From: Gammaproteobacteria bacterium
GTDB lineage: Bacteria > Pseudomonadota > Gammaproteobacteria > Pseudomonadales > JAYPBG01
NCBI GenBank assembly: GCA_038124075.1
Contig: JAYPBG010000004.1
Span: forward strand, 4,173-29,037
Direction: 5' to 3'
DNA: 24,865 nt
Positions 3,585 through 18,500 of this stretch are shown here, one piece after another. The translations under genes and the position numbers were made by a program. Under the pieces are notes generated by a model. That model did not search any database and was not told where the DNA came from. It was given only the letters and a program-made list of their open reading frames with translations. Position 1 is the first letter of the stretch. Every line of letters starts with the position of its first letter.

Positions 3585-6500
3585 ATGACCCAGATCATCA
3601 GCTCAGAAGGCTTAGGACTACTCGGCAGCACACTTAATCTTGACAGCAACAGTCAATCACGCGTTGGTCAGAACCCCTCGACCAGCCATGTTAATGTCGC
3701 CACCGGTAACCTTGTACTTACTCGACACGATGAGGTCATCGCCGCCCAAGGCCAACATCGATCACTGGTCTCTACCTACAACAGCCGTGCCGAACTGAAT
3801 GGCCGCACCGCGTTTCAGTTCAACTTTGAACAACGCCTTGTTCTCGGCAGTGGCACACCCAACAGCACCCACCACCAGATCTCGCGCATCTCGGCAGACG
3901 GCACACAAACCACCTTCACGTACGACAGCTCAGACGGTCTCTACCACACCACCGATGGCAGCGGTGCCCACGACACCTTAGAGTACCGATCCAATGATGC
4001 ACTGCCCTGGGTCTATACCGAAGGCAGCAGCCGCTATCAAGAGCACTACGATGCCAACGGCCTTCTTGTGCAAATTAGCGATCTGGACCATGACGGGATC
4101 ACCACCCTCACCTATGTGGATGGTAAAGTCTCCACCATCACCGATGCCTCCAATCAAGTCACCACACTGGTATACAGCAATGGACGTGTCAGCGCTGTCA
4201 ACACAGCCACCCAAGACGGTCAAGGCAACACGATAGAAGCCACTCAGGTTAAATATGAATATGATGCACACAACCGCCTGCATAAAGTGCACATTGATTT
4301 AACGCCTGAGAATCAAAGTGACAACCAGGTCTACTCGACCACCTACACCTACGACGGCAACAGTGAGCGCATCGCCTCCATCACACAGAGTGACGGCAGC
4401 ACCGTCGCCTACCGCTATGACAGCCTTCAGCGTCTAGAACGCCAAATCGTGGGCACAGGATCCGATCAACGGGTCACCCGCTATGTCTATGGCACGCAAC
4501 AGACTGAAATCATCCATGTCATCAACAGCAACACCGACAGCGGACCTAGAACCCTTGTCCAATATGACAGCCAACACCGCATCACTGAGATCACCACCCC
4601 AGCCGATATCAACGGCTTAACATCAACCACCTCTTACACCTACGACAGCGATGACAATGTGATTGCGGTCACCGATGCTGCAGGCAGTACGATAAGCCGA
4701 AGGTACGACGCAGACGGCAACATGATCGAAGAGCAAAATGAGCTGGGCGAAACCGTTACTTTTCAATACGACGATCAAAACCGCTTAATCGAGCAGACCC
4801 ACTATAAAGACCGTGACAGCGACGGCATCAACGGCAGCGCAACCCCAAACAATGGCAGCAGCCAGCACTTTATCTATGATCAAAATGGCCTGCGCTTTAC
4901 TGTGAGTCACACAGGCCAAGTCAACGAGTCCCGCTACAATGAGCTGGGCCAGATGACGCAGAGTTGGGGGTATACCGCGCACTATACCGGTACGCATATG
5001 ACACTCGCTGACCTGCTCAGCTGGAGCCACGATCACCGTGACGCCCTCACTCAACGCAGTGAACACCGCTACGATTTTCGCGGTCAACTGCGTCAAACCA
5101 CTCACTTTACCGAACTGAATGATGACGGCTCGCCCATCCGAGAGAGCGGCCTGACACAGCACTTCACCTATGATCTGCACGGGCAGCTGCTTAAGAGCAT
5201 CGATGCCAAAGGCAACGAAACCACCTACACCTATGACGGCATGGGCCGTCTACTCACCACCGTCAACGCTAAAGCTCAGACAGCAAGCAACGTGACCTAC
5301 GACGACGCCAACCAACGGGTCATCACTGCACATCTGGGCGATCTACACACAGTGACGGTCACCAACAGCGCCGGTGTTGTTACCAGCCGCCAACAGGTTG
5401 AGACCAGCACCCAGAGCAGCGACGGCACAACACACTACCTCTATGACACGTTGGGGCGCCAAGTGGTCGTCACCGACCCATCCGGCATCAGCCAATACAC
5501 ACTCTACGATGATCTTAATCGCGTATTAGCAACCGTGAATGGCCATGGAGAGGTGACCGAGTTTCGATACGATGCTGCAGGCCGCGTCGTAGAGACGGTT
5601 CAGTACGCCAACCAGAAAGCCTTACCGACCGATTTTAAAACAACGATCAGCACCATCACCGATCTAGCCTCTCTGTTTTACGCCACCGTGCAGCCCAGCC
5701 AACACGCCGATGATCGATATACAGCGACCTACTATGATGATGCCGGGCGCATCGCAGGCACTCAAGATGGCCATGGCGCGCTGGTTGAGTACCGCTATGA
5801 CGGTGCGGGCAACCTTGTCGAAACGATTGCCTACAGCAATATTGCTGAGATCCGCTCAGACTATGATGCGAACCGCACGTTTGATCAAGCGGCTTTCGAT
5901 ACGCTCGTACATTCGATCGTTAAAGAGAGCGCCCATGATCGACACACCTACTCTATTTATGATGCCTCGGGCAAGATGCTCGCCAGCGTCGACGGTGAAG
6001 GCTATCTGACGGAGTACCAATACAGCGGTACAGGACAGCAGACAACCGTTATTCAATACAGTGACAAAGCGAAGGCTGTAGCCGACCTATCCAATAAGCT
6101 GTTAACGCAGAGCGGACACGCGCTTGTTGCACAGCTTAAGCCGTCACAAACAACCGATCAAGCCGCACTGAACCGCCCGACGTTCTATGCATACAACGAT
6201 CTAGGGCAGTTAACCGCTGAGCTGAACCCTGAGGGCGCGCTGACGGAGTATCGCTATGATGCAAATGGGCACATGACTCAGCAGACGACCTATGCGACCT
6301 TGATCCCACAGACGGTGGGCCCGTTCGATCTTGAGAATGATCGACCCAATGCCACAGCCGCTGACCAGACAACACGTTATTACTACAATGAGCTGAACCA
6401 GTTAGTCACTGAGATCACGCCGTTGGGTCAAGTGACTGAGTATCACTATACAGATGCTGGCCAGGTTTCGAACCAGATTACCTATGCGACAGCGCTAGAC

Positions 6501-9500
6501 CACTATGGGGCACTGGGGGCTACGCAGTCGGTTGAGAATATCTCAAATGAAGGGCGTATCACCAAGCAAGACAGTGTTAACTTAATCGATGGCGGCAGCG
6601 CAGCCGTCTGGCTCGAAGAGGGCACCTTTACCTTAGCGCTCTACAGTGACGGCACTCCCAGCACACCTTACTCAACGCTCAACCACGAAGCGATCGATGG
6701 CGCAGAGAACCTCAGCATCGGCCAACTCAGTGACGGCCACTTAGTGATTGTTTGGAATCAAAGCAACGGCCATATTCGAGCGCAACGCATCGATCTCGAA
6801 AACAACGTGATCGGCACTGAATTTCAGATATCCACCTCGACCGCCCATGCAGTAGAGGCGATAACCGTTGAGGGCCTGGATAACGGCAACATGGTCGTTG
6901 CTTGGCAAGCCAGGCAGAGCCATGACAGTGATCAGATTATCTACAGCCGAACCGTAAGCAATACCGGCGCAGCCCTTTCGGATGTTCAAACGGTCAGCAG
7001 TCATACCGCCAACGGGGACAGTGCGCCCAGAATATTTGAATTAGAGGGCGGAGACTACCATATCCAGTGGTCCGCCAACACTAAAACGGAGCTTCGGCAA
7101 GTTATCTATGGTGACCTGTTTGCGGTATGGCAAGAGCATATCAACGATAATACGCTGATGCAGCGAAGCTACAACAGCTCAGGGGCAGCCCTAACAGACG
7201 AGATACAGATACACCCTGCACTGCCTGAGCAGATCAGTGGTCTCAATTACCAAACCCTCTCAAACGGTGACCTTGTGATTACATGGGTCTCCTCAGAGCA
7301 GCTTTATGGGCAGCGCTACAGTCAAGAGAGCCGCCAATGGAGTGCCGTCACCGCCATCGCTCAGGCAGAGAGTGCATCCGGGTTTGATCAGGTTGAGCAG
7401 CGTTGGCACAACGATCAGCTGGTGCTCTCACTGGTAGACGGTGCTTCGACTGAGCGGGTGATTCTAGACTTCAAACATTATGCCGAAGAGTGGATCCCCC
7501 AGAGCCGTCACAATGACAGAGAGAGCATCTCTTCATACAACTATAAAGGAGCGCTTACCCAGACCACCTCCCCTCTCGGAGAGAGCATCGACTATCAGTA
7601 CGACGCTGCTGGACGTTTAAAGAAAACCACCAACCATACTCTCTCTACTCATGAATATCACTACTATGACGGCGTTGGACGGTTGAAATATGTGGTGAAC
7701 GGCGCAGGCGAAGTCACTGAGACGCAGTACAACCACTTTGGTGAAGTTGAGAAAGTACTGCAATACGAAAACCGAATCAGTGACACCTCCAGTTTTACCG
7801 GTGGACTGCTGGGCTCCACTGACCCTGTCTCAAATGCTTTAGGCAGCAACGCATCCTTCATTACGGTAATCGAAAACAGGTATGATCATCAGGGTCGTTT
7901 GATCTCAACTGCGGATGGCAACAGCGTCGAAACACGACAGGAGTACAATGCGTTTGGTGAGCTTAGCCAGATCGCCAAAGGCGTAGAGGCCGCGTTAAGC
8001 AGCGCTGAAAGCTTTACCGCCTACCGTTACGACCGAAGAGGCTTGTTAACCCAAAGCATTAAAGATGCCACGGTTACAGAGACCGTCAACAGCGTCACGA
8101 CAACCCTACACCAGGGTGATGATTTAACAACGACCACTCACTACGACGCCTTTGGGCGTCTTAGCAAGGTCACAAATCATAATCATGCTCTACTGACAGA
8201 GAAAATATATGATCGCTGGGAAAGCCGCGTCGACACCAAAACCTATTTCAGCGAAAACAAGAGTGGCACTGAATCGATCGAGCATGACGCCTTTGGCCGC
8301 ATCAAAGCACGCTACCAGTTTGATACAACGGTAACACGCCCCGGTACCCCAGATGTAGAGTTCAGCTATAACGACAAAGATCAGACCATCACTCGAAGGG
8401 ATATCAACCAAAACAGCTCGGTTACCAAGGTCAACGGTTTAGGTGACACCGTTGAGCATAAAAATGCTTTAGGCATTATCACCCAGTACGAGACGGATGC
8501 CGCAGGTAATATTACCCGTATGATCGAGGCGGTAGGCCGTGATGAAGAGCGCGTTACCCAGTATGTCTATAACGCCGCAGGACAACTCCGCTTTGAAGTG
8601 GATGCTCTGCGTTACGTCACTCAGCATCACTATGATGATGCCGGACGCCTCATCGAACGCACACGCTTCGCCACTCAAACCTCGCTTTCATCTTTAGATG
8701 CACTATCATATGAGATGGTCGATGCTGCTGTGACAACCGATGCAGAGCAGGATCAGACCGATCACTACATTTATAACAGCCGCGGTTTGGTCATCTATCA
8801 TATTGATGCGATGAACTACGTGACTAAGAGTGACTATGATCATGTCGGTAACCTGGAGAGAAGCACCCGATTCAGCCATACCTATGCAGGCCCAGCCACC
8901 CAGAGCGACATTGAGCGTCCCGCTACAAGCGGCGGCCTTACAGCGAACAGCGCTCAAGACCAGCTGACCACCTATCAGTACGACGACCTTGGCCGCCTAA
9001 CAGCAGAGACACTCAAGCTGTTTGAGCATGGCGCCTACACCGATCTAACTGAATCTTACCAATACGATGCGCGTGGAAACCTAACGGCTAAAACGGATCG
9101 CCGCGGAAACATCACCACCTATGCCTATAACGATTTAAATCAGCTTACAGGTGAGTTGCGCCCGAAGCACTCTGTTGACGGCGATACCGCTGCTGCTGAT
9201 CGTAAGGGTTATTTGACCCACTATGAGTATGACCTTCAAGGGAACCGTACCAAAGAGACCCTCTATATGGCCGAGATGTCGATCTATAATAGGAGGGCCG
9301 ACAGTTATATAGACAACTCAGGGAATATCATTGCCAACTTAGTGACAACAACCGGCGGTGAATCCGGCGATCGTGTTACTGAGTATGAGTTTGATACACT
9401 GGGTAGGACTCATAGGGTTATTTCGCCTGAGGTGAACGGAAAGCATAGCATCGTTGAGAATCAGTATGACAGCATCGGAAACTTAGTCGATATTGTTGAA

Positions 9501-12500
9501 ATAGAGGCGAGCGGCTCAAGTGCGAATAATAGTTATATAGAGACTGTGTTAAGGGTGACGCACTTTGAGTTTGATGAGTTGGGTAGGGTGACCCATAAAT
9601 ATGAAGGTTTAAAGGAGATTCCAACAGGTTTCGCGGAAAACCTAACAGCACTGGAAAACCCCAGCTACAGCGACTACCTGGACTCTATTGAGCAGGACCC
9701 AGTTACACACACACTCACCCTTTCAATACAGACGCCCGAAAGCTTTTCAGAAGAGCCCTTATTGCGCATTACTGCGGATGGAGAGGTCATCTTCGACCAG
9801 CTGCCCCTCACTAGGAAAGGCTCCAATTTAATTGAGTTAGATCTGGATGATCGAATCCCCTCTTCATTAACGATACAACGTATTGATACAACAGGTACAG
9901 ATTTAACGATAGGCTATATTGAGCTGGCAGGTATACGGTTTGAACAGAATGAGTCGCTCACAATCGGCGAATCGATCAGCATGGACACAACGCATGCAAG
10001 CGAAAAAGAGATTGAGGCTCTCTTTCACTCATTAAGGGTATCTAAATTTGAGTATGATGCATTTGGAAATATCATCACCGAGTTGACCCCTAACGCACAT
10101 GAACTGGTCACGTCCAACAAACAGTGGGCTCAAAACGAACGTGCAAGAATAGCCGAAAAAGCTAGGAAGGGTGACTACAACCCTCTTTATACGCTCAATT
10201 CACTTATGGATCGTGCTTTACGAAGCTTGCCAACAGACAAAAACGATCTTACAGCTGTTCAATATGATGCCATCATTCAGCTTTACTCCAAAAATAACAC
10301 CTACGATGGACTGAACCGCTTAACTAGAAGCTCATACTTTGATGGCGAGTCAAAACAAGCAACATCATACGACGCCTTCAACAATGTTATTTCAACAGAA
10401 GACGCACTAGGCAACAAGACGGTACTTTTCTATGATGCTCTAAACCGCTTAAGGTTCACAAAAGATGGTGCCGGGTACGTCACAGAAAGAGCCTACAGTC
10501 ACTCAAATCTGGTAGAAAAAGAGACGAATTATCACCAGGCTATTCAGAGCATCACTGAATCCCACTCACTGAGTGAAATAGCAACACTGCTCGAACAGGC
10601 ATCCAGCAACCTTGTCAATACGGAGCACTATCAAGTCAATACCGAGACCCGGTATGTCTACGACAATGTGAACCAACTTAAACAGATTCAAAAAGAGCAT
10701 ATTCAACGAGACGGGCTCGAGCAGACCATCTATGAAACCTATGCCTATGACAGAAATGGAAACCAAATAAATCAATACATGTCTGATACAGCGGCTCACA
10801 ATGAAGCGGCACGCTCATACGAATACCGCTATGACGCGCAAAATAAACTCATATCTGAGCTAAAACCTGAGTCATACGTATCAGTGCGGAACAGCTCTGA
10901 CTCATACGTTTCTGTAAGAACCCGATTAGAAACAACTCAAGCTTACGACGCCGCAGGCAACCTTATATCAACAACAGAAGGCAGTAACTTTAGCAGCACT
11001 GATCTACAATACAAAACCGTTTTCACATACAACAAAAAAAACCAGATAACCAAGAGAATACAAACCTCGCACATCGAAACCTATAACCCAACTACTGACG
11101 CCACAACGGATGCGTACAGTGAAACAGTATACGAATACGACAGCCTAGGAAGAAACACCGCTTCAGAAGATCGAATTATTGCCAGCCATGATACAAACAA
11201 CATCATGCAGAGCAGGAGAACCCAAGAGGGTTATGATCTGTTCGACCAAAAAATATGGCAGGTGGCACCCAATGGGTCGTTGAACGTGACCGCTTATGAC
11301 CCATCAGGAAACTCATTCATTCTTAGGCAGTATGGTCATTCCGATCTTTCGAATACAGATTGGGAGAGCATTAAATCTCAATTAACCTCTGGTAGTGACG
11401 ACTATCGACAGACGACCCAGCTCTTCACCCTTTCCGGGAACCTAACAGAGTCCTCTCAGCGCACAGAGCACCACTTTGATTTAGATGCGGTGTTGGATCT
11501 CGGCAGCACTTACGGAGATTTTTATGGGTATTTTGAAGGATCACCAAAAACAGTAAGAGAGTATGACAAAGCAGGAAACCTTATTAAGGTACGAGATGCC
11601 AACCACAATAACACCTACTATTTTTATAACGAACGAGGTGAACAGATTGGAAAAGTTGATGCCGAAGGCTTTGTAACTGAATTCGAATACAGCCATTCAG
11701 GTCAACTCACAAGAGAAACAAAATATGCTATTGCACTAAGGGATGATGAACAGCCTTGGAATGAAAACAGCGACTTCACCACGCTCATCAACTGGGTAAA
11801 GAGTGACGACAACGCACTGTCCACATCAGTGACTCAATCACCCTATGTCATCAACAACTCTGACAATCGGACAACGATCCTAACCTACGACAGCTTAGAT
11901 CGCTTAATAGAAAAAGTAACAAGTGCCAATACAAGCACCACAGATGCCGCTCTTTCAACATCAAGCAGCCTCAACATCTCTAACAGTCAATTAAAAACCA
12001 TCTATCAGTATGATGAACGCGGTAACATGACTAAAGAGATCAATGCAGAGGGTGATGAGACAGATTTTAACTATAACAACTTGAATCAAACAATCAGCCA
12101 AATCGCACCCTCTATGATCGACTACAGAGGCAACTCAGTTCGCCTCAAAACGATATTCTCATACGACCAAAACGGAGAAGTCGTTAGGACCGACTCAAGA
12201 GGTGTACTCGCCTCGACTGAAGAAGATCTAAATTACGATCAATCCCTCACCCAGTCCACAACATTGTTGAGAAACTCTTCTGGATTTGTAGAGCAAGAAA
12301 AAAAGTTCAGCGCTTCGAATGAGTTTTCTACTACCTATTTTAATCACAACGGGTTTGGAAACGTTACCCGAAAGCAGTGGTCAATCACCAACCACGACGA
12401 CTCAACTCAACATTTCAAAACCACATTTCATTACGATGAGCTTGGAAGAGAAACCTCTCGTACAGACCACAACATTTATCAAGGTGATACAAGTGAAAGA

Positions 12501-15500
12501 GCCCGCGGCGCTCTCATCAGTGATACTTTAACGTATATGACCAGCTACAACGACTACGGAGATATCACTTCAAAAGGGACATATGCTGGTACCCAGCCAA
12601 CAGGTTTTCAAGCCCAAGAACAGTTCTTTTACAACAAACACGGCAGTGTTTTCAAAACAAATGCAGGAAATGGAACATGGAGGGTCTACCTCTATGACAG
12701 AGCTGGGAATGCCACAAATGAAATCAGTGCGGTAGAATCGTTCGATCTTAGAACACCTGAAGGAACAGTAACAAGTACACTTGGCTCTATTTCAAGCACT
12801 GGTCAAATTCATTCAGTGCCACTGCAAGATGTACAGATGAAATTAAGCCGTTTCAATGGTAATGGGCAAATTGTAGATGTATATGAACCGCCTATGGTGT
12901 TTGACAACCTGGTCGGTGATATTACACTCACACACGCCAGTTCAACCGACGGGACCACGGAGTCTACAACAGAAAGTGCATTAGAGTGGGGAGATATTAA
13001 ACTATCCCAAGTAGGTCAATGGACCAATATAGCAGGAAAAACCACATCCACACTGTTCACTCAACGCCTAAATAGAGACGTCTATGACTTTAGCGACAGT
13101 AACGCTATCGGCATAGCCAACACATTAGGGCTGAATACCGCAGCGCCCAACAAAACACTGCTCACCCCTAGCGCAGCACCTAAAGAGGATGTGATAAGCG
13201 ATATAACCACGAATCTCTTCAGCGCTTCGTTAGATATCTTAGAAGATCATGCTACTTTTACGGTGAGTCAATCCAGCCACTTAAATTGGACAATAGAGTT
13301 CTACTCACACGACCTTGATCGAATAGAACAGGAAATAACGAACAACACGCGCGGTCTATCATCCGGCATTCACCTCACACTAACAAGCAGTCAATATGAC
13401 ATACATGTCTCTGCTCAAGAGCGTTCAAGCGGAGAGACTGTAGTCAATTATACAAAAAAAGATGTACTGAATCCGATTGGCATCGACTCATTAGAGATAA
13501 CCTGGGATATAGAAAAAAAGATAACAACCACAGAGGTCTTAGATATAAACGGCTCGATACTTGAACGCTATACTAAACAGGATACAGATCACACGATTCA
13601 CGAGGAAGCACTAAAAAAGAGTTATACTACAACCGTCGATGCTAACGGCAACTCTACAACGAGCGTTGATGAGAGAACGGATAGTGCGAAGAAAGCACAT
13701 AGGCAATCACAGCTGGTGGGCCAAGCCCACAACAACGTCAGAGAACGATTCTTTGGTAACTACTTAAAACATGAACTCGACATAGACAAAGCCAATACTG
13801 TCTCACTAAAAGAGTTAGCCGACAATAATAACTATGGGACAATCAGCTACCTCCCTTCTGATAAATTAATTATCGGGCATAGAAGAGGTACACATGACGG
13901 CAAAACAACCCACAGAATAAAGACCATGAATTCACTGGCCGCCACCCCAGGTTCAAACCAAGAACTTTTTCTAAAGATGCGCTCAACTCAAACCACCAGC
14001 TATAATAGTCACCTGAGAAAAAACGTTAACAACGTTACGATTACCAAATCGGGAAGACGAATTAAAAACCCCTACATCATTCAAGACGAAACGTATGAAA
14101 GAGAACCGATAAGTTTTAATTCATCTAACGGTCTAGAAGCCGAGAGCTACCTTTACAGCGGCAGCATTTATGCAATGGATTCCAAGTTAAACTCTGATCA
14201 CGAGGTTACAGATGTTCGAATCAGCATAACAACTGCTGGCGGACACACTCGAGCATCGGGGGACGTCAACCTATACCGTCATTACAAAAACAACAAATAC
14301 TTTACCACTACAATCAACATTCCCGACCTACTCACAGTAGGACAAATACCAGATGCCAACAAAGTTGTTCTATACCACTATCGCAACGGCTCATTACTGA
14401 AATCTGTTAACTTAGAATATATAGAAAAGGATAGGAATTTCATTTGGGAAGACACCAACAACATTAATTGGGGCAGCGATACGTTCAAATTGAAAGCCTT
14501 CTACAAACCAGAGGAAGGTGGCAGCCAAAAAGACGAACTCATCATGTATGCTGATGGTCGATTCGACAGCAACTACACGCCCACGCTTACACACAACACA
14601 ATTCACTATGTTGAAAAAAATACCACCGGCGAAAAAGAGCGAGTCTACTTATCGGGTGTCTATGAAGACACCCTAGACGACCACTGGTATACAGACCCAG
14701 CTCAACGGAGCTACATCAAAAACATTGCCTACTCAATACTTAACACGGGTGACTCACCCACCTCGTCAAGTAATGATCTGTCAGATGACAGTACTACACC
14801 CATCTATGAAACAGATGACAACGGCGATTTCCAAGGAAACATTATTCACCGATCACAAAAATATAACGCATTCGGAGACATCATATCTGAAACCGATGGC
14901 CGAGGTTATACCACCTTTAACAGGTACAACAACGTCGGCTGGCTAGAAGAAACGCGCGCACCAGAAACCGATGTGTATAAAGAGTCCGGCTCGGCAATAC
15001 GACTTTCACCAACGAAGCGATATTTTTACAACGCATTAGGGGAGCTTGTGGCAAGCGAAGATGCCAACTCCACCTCCTCATCCGGCAGCTCTTTGTATGA
15101 AATACGCGTACGCGACAATGGCAAGGTCACCAAGGAGATACACCGAGACAGTGGCGTCAAACTATACGGTTATGATGTCTACGGCAACACACGAAGGGTA
15201 ATCGATGAGATAGATCAACATACTCGCAATGAATTTGACATCAACGGCAACATCACCTCAACAACAAAATTTCAAGTTAAAAGTGACGCAACAACCTCTG
15301 ATCGACGAAACCTAAATGTTAGCCTTGGGAAACTAGACACGTTAGCAACAGAGGAATATGGTTATGATGAGCTGGGCAAACGCATCTCTCATACCAATGC
15401 AATAGGCCTATCTGAACACTACATATATGATGGTATGGGTCGTATCCGCCTCCACGCAGAGCTGTCCGACCTAGGTATATTAGGCCCACAAAACACCTCT

Positions 15501-18500
15501 GGCCCAATTACCCGCTATGATTATGAGTTCAAAAATGAGCTAACACACCAAGGCAGTGGTTTCTTAAAAACGACCGCCAATGAATTAGCTGGCTTGGCGT
15601 GGAACTATCACAACAATGTTGCCAATGAGGCTCCATTCAATACAGACGAATACGAAGATTCAGTCCATATTATCGAAGCGTCACTCACCAATACAAACCC
15701 AAATGGGCACCACAAGATTATAGATGCTGAAAACTATTTTGGGAAAAAGCAGTATCACATAGACATGGGCGGCCATCGATTTGACTATGAATACAATGAT
15801 GCTGGATGGCTTGTCAAACAGACAGCCAATACAGGCGTAAGAGACGCTGCTTCTGGCGACTATGTTACTGAAACCCTAGGCGCTGGCGCCAATAAATATT
15901 TCCGTGTTGATCAACACATAACGTACGACTACTACGCAAACGGTCATTTAAAAAGCGTAAACGATACTGGAACCAACACGCAGTCGCGTTTTGCCTATGA
16001 TAAAAACGGCAACCGTATACAGGAGATCATTCATCACAACTCAGAAGATCTTGATATCGAAGAAGGTTCACAAGAAAACTACGAGCTTGTGCCCTACCAG
16101 GTAAGTCACGCAACGTATGATGAGTTAAATAGAATTAAGTATATCAACGATGCGGAGTACAGCGTCTTTTATGGCTATGATGCAAACAGTAACAGGCGGT
16201 TTGTAGGCAGCTACTTTCATGATGGCTCTGCCACCCCAAGCGATGAAGAAGTTGAAACCCTTCAATATTACAGTGATCGAGTCTCACAGTGGGGTTCTCA
16301 AGAAGTCAAAGTAAACATGAAAACATCCCTCTATGACGGTGTTGGGGCTAACTATGAGATTCTTGCAGATGGCGTTACGATCGGGAGTGGTACTTTAACG
16401 AATACCACATACCAGGAATTCACCTTTCACTATGAAGGCAGTCCAGCAAAAGAGATTCAAGTTAGATTCACAAATGATGCAGCTGACGACAATCAGGATA
16501 GAAACCTTTTTGTTGAGTGGCTTGAGTACCAAATGGTTCGATATCAATCTGATTCGTCGGCCGTCATTTACAATCGCGCCAATGACAGCATTAAAGGACA
16601 ATCTAGCATGGATCGAAATGGGTCTCTCCATTTTAATACATCCATGAAAGCAGGCTCATTATATGGCTACATCTACGACAGCATGGATCGATTCACCACA
16701 ACAATGGGCAAAGTGACCCTGGATGCTTCAGGTAATATTCACTCCATTAACATCGGGCACACGGGGTTTGAGCTCTCCTATAACAAATCAGGCCAGAGAA
16801 CTCAGCAAAAAAGTAACTTGAAATTACTGAACGGAACACCACAACAGGAAGTAGAACGGTACTACTATAATGGGCTGGGACAGCTCGCCAGAATAGAAAT
16901 CGGGACGAGTGAATCATCTCTAGAAACAAAAGGCCTAAAACTGCATGATGCTTCCGGTAGACTCGTTCAAGAGGCCCATGTCACATCATCGGGTGATATC
17001 ATTGCCAAACACTACAACTACACAGCTTATAATCAATTAAACGACTCTACGACCTATGAACCCACATCTACAAGCTCTTTGAGTGGTGCGATCAATCTCA
17101 ATAGTTTCAATCTTGTCTACAGAGATGATACAGACTTGCTCATATCTCATACAACACGAAACGGGCTATCAAAAAGCCAAACGGATCAATACTCATATTT
17201 GGTTGACCAAAAGACACTCGACATCATCAACCAGAAGAGATACGTAGACGGCAGCGTTGACACTGAGATCGACCTCTACTATCTATACTACCAATACGAT
17301 CGATTTGACGAGTTTAAGCTCAGCCAGGTGATCATTAAAGGAACGGGTGTTGATGATCACAGGGAGCATGGCTGGAAAAGTGGGTATTCACTATATCAAT
17401 ATAACGGCAATGGTCATGTACGTCAGGTTCGAGACGGTCATGCAAACAGAACGCTTAGTTACGTTAATAACCATCGGGGCATGGTTTTGCAGCGTCAAGA
17501 AGACCGCATGGTCTCCACTACTGAGTCTGGAAAGCCGTTCCATAGAGACTTTTACTATATGAATGGCATAGTCATAGGCGATGTTGGCAATGACGATACC
17601 ATTGCGAGCCGGGTCGATTATGCTCAAAGCTTGGCGCTTATCGATGCTGACAATCACAACGACATTGGCGACCGGGTTTTTCCAACAATAAGCGCAGATT
17701 TTGATCAGAACTTCCGACCCATTAATGCTAACTATCCCGCTAAAACAGGCACTCAGTACAGAACGGTAGAAGGCGATACTCTACAGGGTATTGCAGCTGC
17801 ACTTTGGGGTGATAGTAGCCTATGGTATTTGATTGCAGACGCTAATGCGTTATCAGCTGACACCGCCTTAGAACCCAATTTGAGCCTTCATATACCGAAT
17901 GTTGTGACAAACATTCATAATAACAGTGATACGTTTAGGCCTTATGATGCTGGGTTAGCCTTAGGTGATACGAATCCGACGTTGCCTGAACCGCCGCCTC
18001 CGCCGAGTCCTGAGTGTGGTGTTAAGCAGATCCTGATCGTTGTGGTTGCCGCTGTGGCTGCTGCATTCACAGCTGGAGCAGCTTTTGCTGCTATGGGCTT
18101 TACCAGCGCCGCAGCTGGTGGAGGTGCACTGACTTTGGGAGCTGCCATTACTGGAACGGCTGCGGCAGGCGCTAGTACCCTAGCCGTCGCTGGAGGTATA
18201 ATTGCTGCATCTGCTATAGGTGGGGCAGTAGGAAGCATTACCCGACAAGGTTTAAATATCGCCACAGGCGAACAAGATCACTTCTCCTGGAGCCAAGTAG
18301 GAAAAGAAGCCCTTGTTGGAGGTGTTTCCGGTGGTCTCACGATGGGCGCAAATGTCGGTTTGCAAGCCATTTCTAACAGTGGTAATTGGGCAAGTTCTGC
18401 AGCGACAATGATTCATAACTCACGTTCATCACAATATATGATGCATGCCGCAAGTAGTGAAGTGGGCAGAATCGCTGCGAATCAAAGCACCCAATTTGAG

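Follow-up and report, generated by a model that had tools for sequence, protein, structure and literature searches.

The toxin-tip junction of a giant LysM-RHS protein lacks the Rhs aspartyl core and carries a near-invariant cysteine

We analysed a 24,865-nt stretch of contig JAYPBG010000004.1 of a gammaproteobacterium (hereafter the window; nucleotide positions count from its first letter), in which one gene encodes a 5461-residue protein made largely of RHS (YD) repeats. The part of the gene that follows the last YD repeats is probably (at roughly 60%) the constant-to-variable junction of a family of giant LysM-RHS toxins that have lost the Rhs aspartyl core and rely on another pre-toxin module. 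Members share one order of elements: the last YD repeats, an ADFDxNYxPI motif, a LysM domain, a PNKVTNxHNN..GxTxPTLP linker, a poly-Pro run and the motif P5-KKGG-C-GG, followed by a hairpin of ~70 uncharged residues, two Q..G.Q..FSW repeats, a variable tip and a downstream immunity gene (Table 1). No Rhs core is found, and alleles diverge 5–30 residues after the Cys. All the elements named in the original prediction for this stretch are present where it had put them, the ADFDQNFRPI motif starting 6 nt further upstream.

C4811 is the only Cys of the protein, a script count of exactly one that matches the original prediction. At the Cys frequency of the same genome (1.03%, from open reading frames (ORFs) of at least 300 residues), ~56 would be expected, and the Poisson probability of one or none is ~2e-23. 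In the junction alignment of 247 sequences, C4811 is kept in 244, the remainder having one Ser, one Trp and one divergent sequence, and G4812 is kept in 235. The Cys-anchored logo reads P5-KKGG-C-GG-[ILF]-G, followed by an I/V/A-rich helix. Gly stands at position −1 in 183 of 242 members and at position +1 in 232, and positions −2 to −5 vary in both residue and length. Cys is rare throughout the family (0.53 per 1000 residues before the junction and 0.41 after it), and many of the giants contain this Cys only. Retention in 244 of 247 members of an otherwise Cys-purging family points to a thiol-specific role; as judged from the alignment, the lone Cys is clearly under very strong selection.

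The canonical aspartyl self-cleavage core is missing from the LysM-RHS family. The original prediction had seen no PxxxxDPxG motif at the junction, and pattern and profile searches agree. PxxxxDP occurs nowhere in the 5461 residues; DPxG occurs at residues 631 and 2572 only, both within ordinary YD repeats, and not beyond. The Rhs-associated core profile (TIGR03696, Rhs_assc_core) matches neither residues 4300–5461 nor, at E ≤ 10, any of the 95 relatives that were scanned with this profile and with Pfam. As a positive control, the profile scores 107 bits on a canonical Rhs elsewhere in the same genome, the product of which ends in ...DPIGL. The canonical Rhs end (contig C154; L006:594–1859, minus strand) has 3 Cys in 422 residues, a normal content, and its presence indicates that both junction types coexist in one organism.

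A degenerate Rhs core at the junction is rejected: none of the 95 members gives a profile signal. The last YD-type element, FYYMNGIVIGDVGNDD, may at most be a degraded relic of RYYDPxxGRF..DPIG in Rhs, and its Asp residues vary (D4666 in 96 and D4670 in 113 of 151 sequences). The same is true of D4795, which the original prediction had put forward as a release residue (the Asp in GDT). The column holds Asp in 167 of 247 sequences (68%), Asn in 50, His in 11 and Arg in 8, so D4795 is rejected as an essential catalytic residue.

Pairs of members that are 96–99% identical over the 1000 residues upstream drop to 30–55% identity straight after the Cys. The Lysobacter protein P0018 and P0106, for example, are 99% identical over the upstream 1000 residues and 50, 44, 33 and 20% identical in successive blocks after the Cys. 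The corresponding blocks are 53, 41, 63 and 19% for P0191 (Chromobacterium) and P0051 (91–96% upstream), and 67, 40, 33 and 18% for P0118 (Duganella) and P0164 (92–99% upstream). In the Acinetobacter baumannii pair P0163 and P0211 (93–98% upstream), identity is complete through KKKCGGIAQI.MIVVA.VVT and then falls to 43%. Other pairs break later. The Microbulbifer proteins P0197 and P0213 (95–100% upstream) stay similar (80%, 66%) to about +100 and then fall to 27%, and others, among them Hahella P0181/P0204 as well as P0154/P0155, keep 97–99% identity across the whole hairpin and diverge at about +220 to +230.

A change-point scan was applied to 76 pairs with 95% identity or more over the LysM region. 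It places 47 breaks at +5 to +30 after the Cys, 4 at +31 to +100, 1 at +101 to +200, 8 at +201 to +300 and 3 beyond; the other 13 pairs show none. Two nested cassette boundaries emerge from this. The main one lies inside the first helix just after the Cys, the second where the helical module ends. The constant and variable parts of Rhs and CdiA toxins meet at the release motif (DPxGL and VENN, respectively). By analogy, we infer that the Cys motif may be a functional demarcation of the two parts here.

The family is large. An exhaustive search with residues 4640–5461 finds 2271 cluster representatives (50% identity) at E ≤ 1e-3 and 564 at E ≤ 1e-30, and the homology spans residues ~4652–4990 before it diverges. 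Members are mostly 4000–7700 residues long and are usually named "LysM peptidoglycan-binding domain-containing protein" at NCBI. The named organisms are Hahella, Parendozoicomonas, Zooshikella, Spartinivicinus, Microbulbifer, Lysobacter, Chromobacterium, Aquitalea, Acinetobacter baumannii, A. pittii, Burkholderia, Eleftheria, Duganella, Sphingomonas and Caulobacter. Numerous gammaproteobacteria of marine origin are represented as well. Pfam toxin domains at the tips of homologues comprise Endonuclease_NS_2, AHH, LHH, Ntox22, Ntox43, TNT, YwqJ deaminase, PT-TG and PT-HINT.

In the ADFDQNFRPI motif, F4706 is kept in 243, D4707 in 246 and D4705 in 233 of the 247 sequences. This motif is probably the end or the plug of the YD shell, with a predicted local distance difference test (pLDDT) score below 50 in both AlphaFold2 (AF2) models. 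The LysM domain, called as such in the original prediction, is real. In the single sequence it stays below the Pfam threshold (E 0.004–0.01; 16–18 bits against a cut-off of 20.9), and PF01476 matches 91 of the 95 relatives (best E 3.9e-11). The family profile matches the LysM domain of E. coli Kbp in the PDB at 9e-9, as well as LysM proteins of contractile-injection baseplates. In the AF2 model of the module, residues 4720–4774 adopt the beta-alpha-alpha-beta fold at pLDDT 88–97, and Foldseek returns only LysM structures for this part. Near-invariant residues run through the domain (G4742, 247; D4743, 246; W4747, 246; N4754, 247; P4771, 246 of 247) and continue into the linker (N4776, 246; H4778, 242; T4783, 244; G4794, 247; P4798, 246). 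The linker contains NIHNN..TFRPY (residues 4776–4787) and ends in GDTNPTLPEPPPPP (residues 4794–4807; nt 17964–18005).

Downstream of the Cys, residues 4813–4886 form the sole strongly hydrophobic part of the whole protein. Among 221 members, the stretch from the Cys to a conserved SQ..G.A.G.Q..FSW motif, which terminates it, has a median length of 69 residues and consists of 29% Ala, 20% Gly and 14% Val. Charged residues make up 0.87% of it, and 158 of the 221 stretches have none. Two amphipathic repeats follow, the first of which begins with Q4888, kept in 206 of 207 sequences. Conservation runs to residues ~5067–5090, past which it is at background level. From the Cys to the C-terminus, the proteins vary little in length (median 621 residues, 570–730 in most members) even though the tips are unrelated, which suggests a constraint on cargo size.

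AF2 predicts the hairpin as two helices (residues 4813–4839 and 4866–4893), followed by helices at 4902–4929, 4947–4964 and 4973–4993 and more to ~5069. C4811, at the start of the first helix, and Q4888 (18246–18248), near the end of the second, would lie on the same membrane face of the predicted hairpin. Foldseek finds nothing in the PDB below E 0.7 for the helical part; its matches to TIM23, complex I and BAK were discarded as noise, and profile matches of the hydrophobic part to N4 gp53-like and DUF973 proteins in the PDB (E ~1e-3) are probably compositional.

A second AF2 model, of 1200 residues (3741–4940; 62 sequences), has a mean pLDDT of 65.5, with the YD strands at 80–90, residues 4673–4724 below 50 and the block 4791–4800 at 80. 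Its top Foldseek matches are Rhs proteins of type VI secretion systems (T6SSs), the bacterial teneurin-like protein 9ifo, teneurins and TcB-TcC (E 1e-30 to 1e-15; template-modelling (TM) score ~0.2). The predicted local fold of the last YD array is thus Rhs-like. The model does not superimpose globally on solved cocoons (TM ~0.2), and it bears neither on closure of the shell nor on the place of the LysM domain.

The hairpin and the amphipathic repeats appear distantly DUF637-like. In the ESM Atlas, the best feature match of residues 4805–5075 is a DUF637 cluster at 0.92, and further matches carry DUF637 together with PT-VENN. Among the 95 relatives, one has a direct match to Pfam DUF637 (PF04830; 1.9e-4). 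Against a profile of five DUF637 regions from genomes of the same order, hhalign gives a probability of 83% (E 8.9e-6, 86 columns), with residues 4813–4918 aligned to the start of DUF637; probabilities range from 64 to 83%. The sub-region scores 35.1, compared with 9.8 ± 1.8 for 100 globally and 9.9 ± 1.4 for 100 locally column-shuffled templates (maximum 16), indicating that the match does not arise from composition alone. The link is a remote one.

The genes next to the toxin are in keeping with its export. Directly upstream of the toxin operon, nucleotides 1–1082 hold the end of a flagellar rod/hook-type gene (an ORF with Flg_bbr_C) and fliP. We inspected two further loci. The homologue of Lysobacter enzymogenes lies ~7 kb from fliP, two FliMN_C-type (fliM/fliN-like) genes and rod/hook, sigma-70, SLT and TPR genes (this gene set at L003:29640–34778); three RebB (R-body) genes are found upstream of it (L003:2036–5657). 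The homologue of Parendozoicomonas haliclonae lies 2 kb from a sigma-70 gene followed by fliP, fliN, fliM, flgE, flgD, fliI, fliH and fliF (this gene set at L005:26125–34682), with no SLT gene. In the latter cluster, Cys is missing from the exported FlgE and FlgD but occurs 4–5 times in each of the cytoplasmic FliI, FliH and FliM, which fits the giant protein as an exported substrate. From this gene content, the giant toxin is probably exported by the neighbouring flagellar-type machine. Published work on flagellar-type export in Lysobacter makes no mention of the giant protein (PMC7688988), and neither Rhs nor LysM proteins come up in papers on that system or on the flagellar types of Xylophilus.

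The best-supported reading of the junction is a pre-toxin delivery module. The protein would first be exported, probably via the neighbouring flagellar-type machine, and the LysM domain would dock the end of the carrier on peptidoglycan, from which the rigid poly-Pro spacer could reach over to the membrane. As the uncharged hairpin inserted, the basic Lys residues ahead of the Cys would remain at the near face, and the amphipathic repeats or the helical module would carry the tip across. The Cys, then at the membrane surface, could be a processing or covalent tethering point that replaces DPxGL. A bolder proposal, to which we attach a rather low probability, is that GG-C-GG would be a new kind of toxin-release or covalent-attachment point. 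It would stand in for the aspartyl protease of Rhs proteins in toxins that leave the cell through a flagellum-derived machine, either through thiol-dependent self-cleavage at the membrane surface or through a reactive linkage between C4811 and Q4888.

Several points weigh against the reading of this stretch as a junction with a new pre-toxin module, or against parts of it. Pfam DUF637 matches neither the 5461-residue protein nor anything in a whole-genome search of its genome. The Cys is replaced by Ser or Trp in two relatives. The pairs that define the break points share proteins and lineages, and hence do not represent independent events. The AF2 models are only moderate (mean pLDDT 65–67, with the ADFD region below 50) and do not show where the LysM domain and the Cys lie with respect to the shell. 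Among the closest LysM matches of solved structure are Kbp, which binds K+, and baseplate proteins with a structural role in contractile injection systems, and thus the LysM domain need not bind glycan. Finally, export, processing, peptidoglycan binding and membrane insertion are proposals for the family drawn from its sequences.

What the Cys does can be read in other ways. It might be a self-cleavage nucleophile, with an N-to-S acyl shift at the Gly–Cys bond that frees everything downstream and takes the place of the Asp protease. Such shifts occur between Gly and Cys in Hedgehog proteins and inteins, and between Gly and Ser in SEA domains. The frequent Gly at −1 and +1 would suit this chemistry, of which Ser, the sole polar substitution, is also capable, and so would the place of the allelic boundary, right at the Cys, and the lack of a Rhs core. 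However, known Cys, Ser or Thr autoprocessing requires a folded catalytic scaffold, and here the Cys is located between poly-Pro and a predicted membrane helix. Pfam Hint and PT-HINT do not match the 5461-residue protein and no similar domain is detected, the residues at −2 to −5 are variable, and Trp replaces the Cys in one relative. Self-catalysed cleavage at the Cys is possible but not favoured, and we regard release of the tip by this route as rather unlikely. A thioester of the alpha-2-macroglobulin CGEQ type was rejected, with Gln at +4 in only 58 of 242 members. Of the different release mechanism suggested in the original prediction, the premise stands (the Rhs core is gone, the Cys is constrained and alleles diverge there), whereas the Asp version fails and the version with the lone Cys as nucleophile has the constraint and the boundary on its side but lacks a HINT-like fold.

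Alternatively, the Cys may form an intermolecular disulfide outside the cytoplasm, with a second copy, which would bring two hairpins together, or with a partner protein, and thereby tether or assemble the delivery module. With one Cys per protein in many members, only intermolecular bonds could form; the thiol stands at the start of the hairpin between flexible Gly residues, and extreme depletion of Cys elsewhere would avert wrong pairings. There is also a precedent, a bacterial teneurin-like YD protein in which a disulfide links fragments (PMC13018210). No conserved partner Cys was identified, and Cys is absent from FlgE and FlgD, both exported by the neighbouring system. We regard a disulfide as a minor possibility. 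We give little credence to the Cys as a lipidation or sorting site of the MYXO-CTERM or GlyGly-CTERM kind, which an intramembrane enzyme would cleave and join to lipid. A Gly-flanked Cys right before a hydrophobic helix does resemble the tripartite signals, but no NCBIfam sorting-signal model (MYXO-CTERM, GlyGly-CTERM, PEP-CTERM) matches any of eight junction segments at E ≤ 10, no basic cluster lies past the helix, the signal would be internal with ~650 residues after it, and the three loci inspected hold no candidate sorting enzyme.

Two further alternatives take the Cys out of the release step or the hairpin out of delivery. A diverged aspartyl protease might persist at ADFD (D4705/D4707) and cut there, in which case the LysM domain would travel with the cargo and the Cys would have nothing to do with release. 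The near-invariance of D4707 and D4705 agrees with this, and we read a loose resemblance to the Rhs stretch in the upstream YYYxNGxxVGDVGNDG. The idea is nonetheless improbable, given that none of the 95 scanned members has similarity to the core profile at E ≤ 10, that D4666 and D4670 vary, and that the allelic boundary is at the Cys, ~105 residues downstream, with the LysM domain in the constant part. The hydrophobic segment could also be the toxin itself, a Tse5-like depolarising pore, or an anchor in the producer's membrane. Tse5 is an Rhs protein whose C-terminus forms a pore (PMC9637101); the predicted hairpin here is strongly hydrophobic and Gly-rich, and many of the allelic exchanges take in the segment as well as the tip. 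Against a pore, the segment is present in relatives with nuclease, deaminase or NADase tips, it is followed by ~370 variable residues and an immunity gene, and a PDB profile search gives no match to Tse5. Anchoring in the producer would require 4800 residues to be moved across the inner membrane without a signal peptide. Both forms seem quite unlikely to us.

The preferred reading, a constant-to-variable junction with its own pre-toxin module, can be set beside known systems. Like Rhs, TcC and teneurin-like proteins (TLP) (RhsA, 7q97; Tse15, 8uxt; Tse5, 8cp6; TcdB2-TccC3, 4o9x; TLP, 9ifo), the protein has YD repeats with a predicted Rhs-like local fold (Foldseek E 1e-30 to 1e-24), a polymorphic C-terminal toxin, a downstream immunity gene and a sharp boundary between constant and variable parts. 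Unlike Rhs and TcC, it has no Rhs-associated core, no PxxxxDPxGL and no invariant counterpart of their two catalytic Asp residues, which lie ~22 residues apart, and it is 3–4 times longer, its junction has a LysM domain, a poly-Pro spacer, a lone Cys and a hydrophobic hairpin, and the window contains flagellar-type export genes instead of T6SS genes. In metazoan teneurins, too, the YD shell lacks an aspartyl cleavage motif, and the C-terminal domains stay attached (PMC13018210). The LysM-RHS family shares the former feature with them, but Pfam finds no FN-plug, NHL, ABD or Tox-GHH, the family is polymorphic with immunity genes, and its predicted membrane helices lie C-terminal to the shell whereas those of teneurins lie N-terminal.

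The CdiA pre-toxin domain precedes a polymorphic C-terminal region and enters the target periplasm before that region is cut off, by a mechanism that is poorly characterised (PMC9086364). As in the DUF637/PT-VENN regions of CdiA and FhaB, a hydrophobic helix (..IVVAxxTxGxxA..) and then Gly/Ala-rich helices stand before a polymorphic C-terminal region of 200–450 residues. In contrast to CdiA, there is no Pfam match to TPS or FHA domains and no VENN, ELYN or similar motif past residue 4600. DUF637 has no Cys before the helix, and in the LysM-RHS family the swap boundary is at the start of the module rather than at its end. Hydrophobic-hairpin translocation or pore domains are also found in colicins, in the T domain of diphtheria toxin and in the SipB/IpaB translocators. 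In principle the module resembles them, a long uncharged hairpin flanked by amphipathic helices that would suit insertion from the near side of a membrane. It has no significant sequence or fold match to them (Foldseek E > 0.7 for the helical part; SipB and MakA at E 0.5–7).

Rhs, Tc and CdiA toxins are understood via their release motifs (DPxGL, VENN), and the very large LysM-RHS family does without either. P5-KKGG-C-GG is a short, testable site between a constant carrier and a swappable cargo, with a single residue to mutate, and residues 4811–5070 are a defined fragment for membrane-insertion tests. The module after the Cys is tentatively linked to the poorly understood CdiA pre-toxin domain. 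The junction bears on the way in which a toxin of ~5000 residues that probably leaves the producer through a flagellar-type machine delivers its toxic part into a target cell. We found no paper that describes the LysM-RHS giant toxin family; new here are the statistics on Cys depletion and conservation, the case against D4795, a recombination boundary located at the Cys and the link to DUF637.

Table 1 Features of the giant LysM-RHS gene and its junction in the window
Feature	Position (nt)	Strand	Residues	Remarks
Giant LysM-RHS polymorphic toxin gene	3585..19970	+	5461 aa	Single Cys; from ORF list, translation, Pfam matches and Cys count
Last YD-type element FYYMNGIVIGDVGNDD	17550..17597	+	4656–4671	Family consensus YYYxNGxxVGDVGNDG; from column counts
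ADFDQNFRPI	17694..17723	+	4704–4713	
LysM domain	17757..17897	+	4725–4771	From Pfam, profile, AF2 and Foldseek
Linker PN(K)VTNxHNN..TFRPY..G(D)TxPTLP and poly-Pro run	17895..18005	+	4771–4807	
Cys4811	18015..18017	+	4811	Sole Cys, in family motif P5-KKGG-C-GG
Ala/Gly/Val helical hairpin (predicted)	18021..18242	+	4813–4886	Near-uncharged, one Lys (K4814)
Two amphipathic repeats Q..G.A.G.Q..F(S/E)W..VA	18246..18563	+	4888–4929 and 4958–4993	
End of conserved helical module	18564..18854	+	4994–5090	G5063 and G5067 conserved; second swap boundary
Variable toxin tip	18855..19967	+	~370 aa	No conserved columns

Along the rest of the protein, Pfam finds RHS repeats (PF05593, E 1e-64 to 1e-14), a weak N-terminal DUF6531 and a CBM60 insert; past residue 4400, it finds nothing but the sub-threshold LysM domain. 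The variable tip at the C-terminus with an immunity gene next to it is the arrangement that characterises polymorphic toxins, and a small ORF (19960–20352) overlaps the end of the giant gene. At the other end, the N-terminus M(V/T)(A/Q)I(V/I)SG.GLGL (3585–3700) is common to giants of distant genera and could be an export signal. The giant gene of P. haliclonae appears split into a 1293-residue piece (L005:5710–9591), which has the N-terminus MVAIISS..GLGL and ends in low-complexity junk, and a 4893-residue piece (10001–24682) that does not have the family N-terminus; the split is probably a frameshift or an assembly error. A minus-strand ORF of 107 residues (17942–18265) runs antisense to the Ala/Gly-rich coding stretch and is most likely a by-product of local composition rather than a gene.

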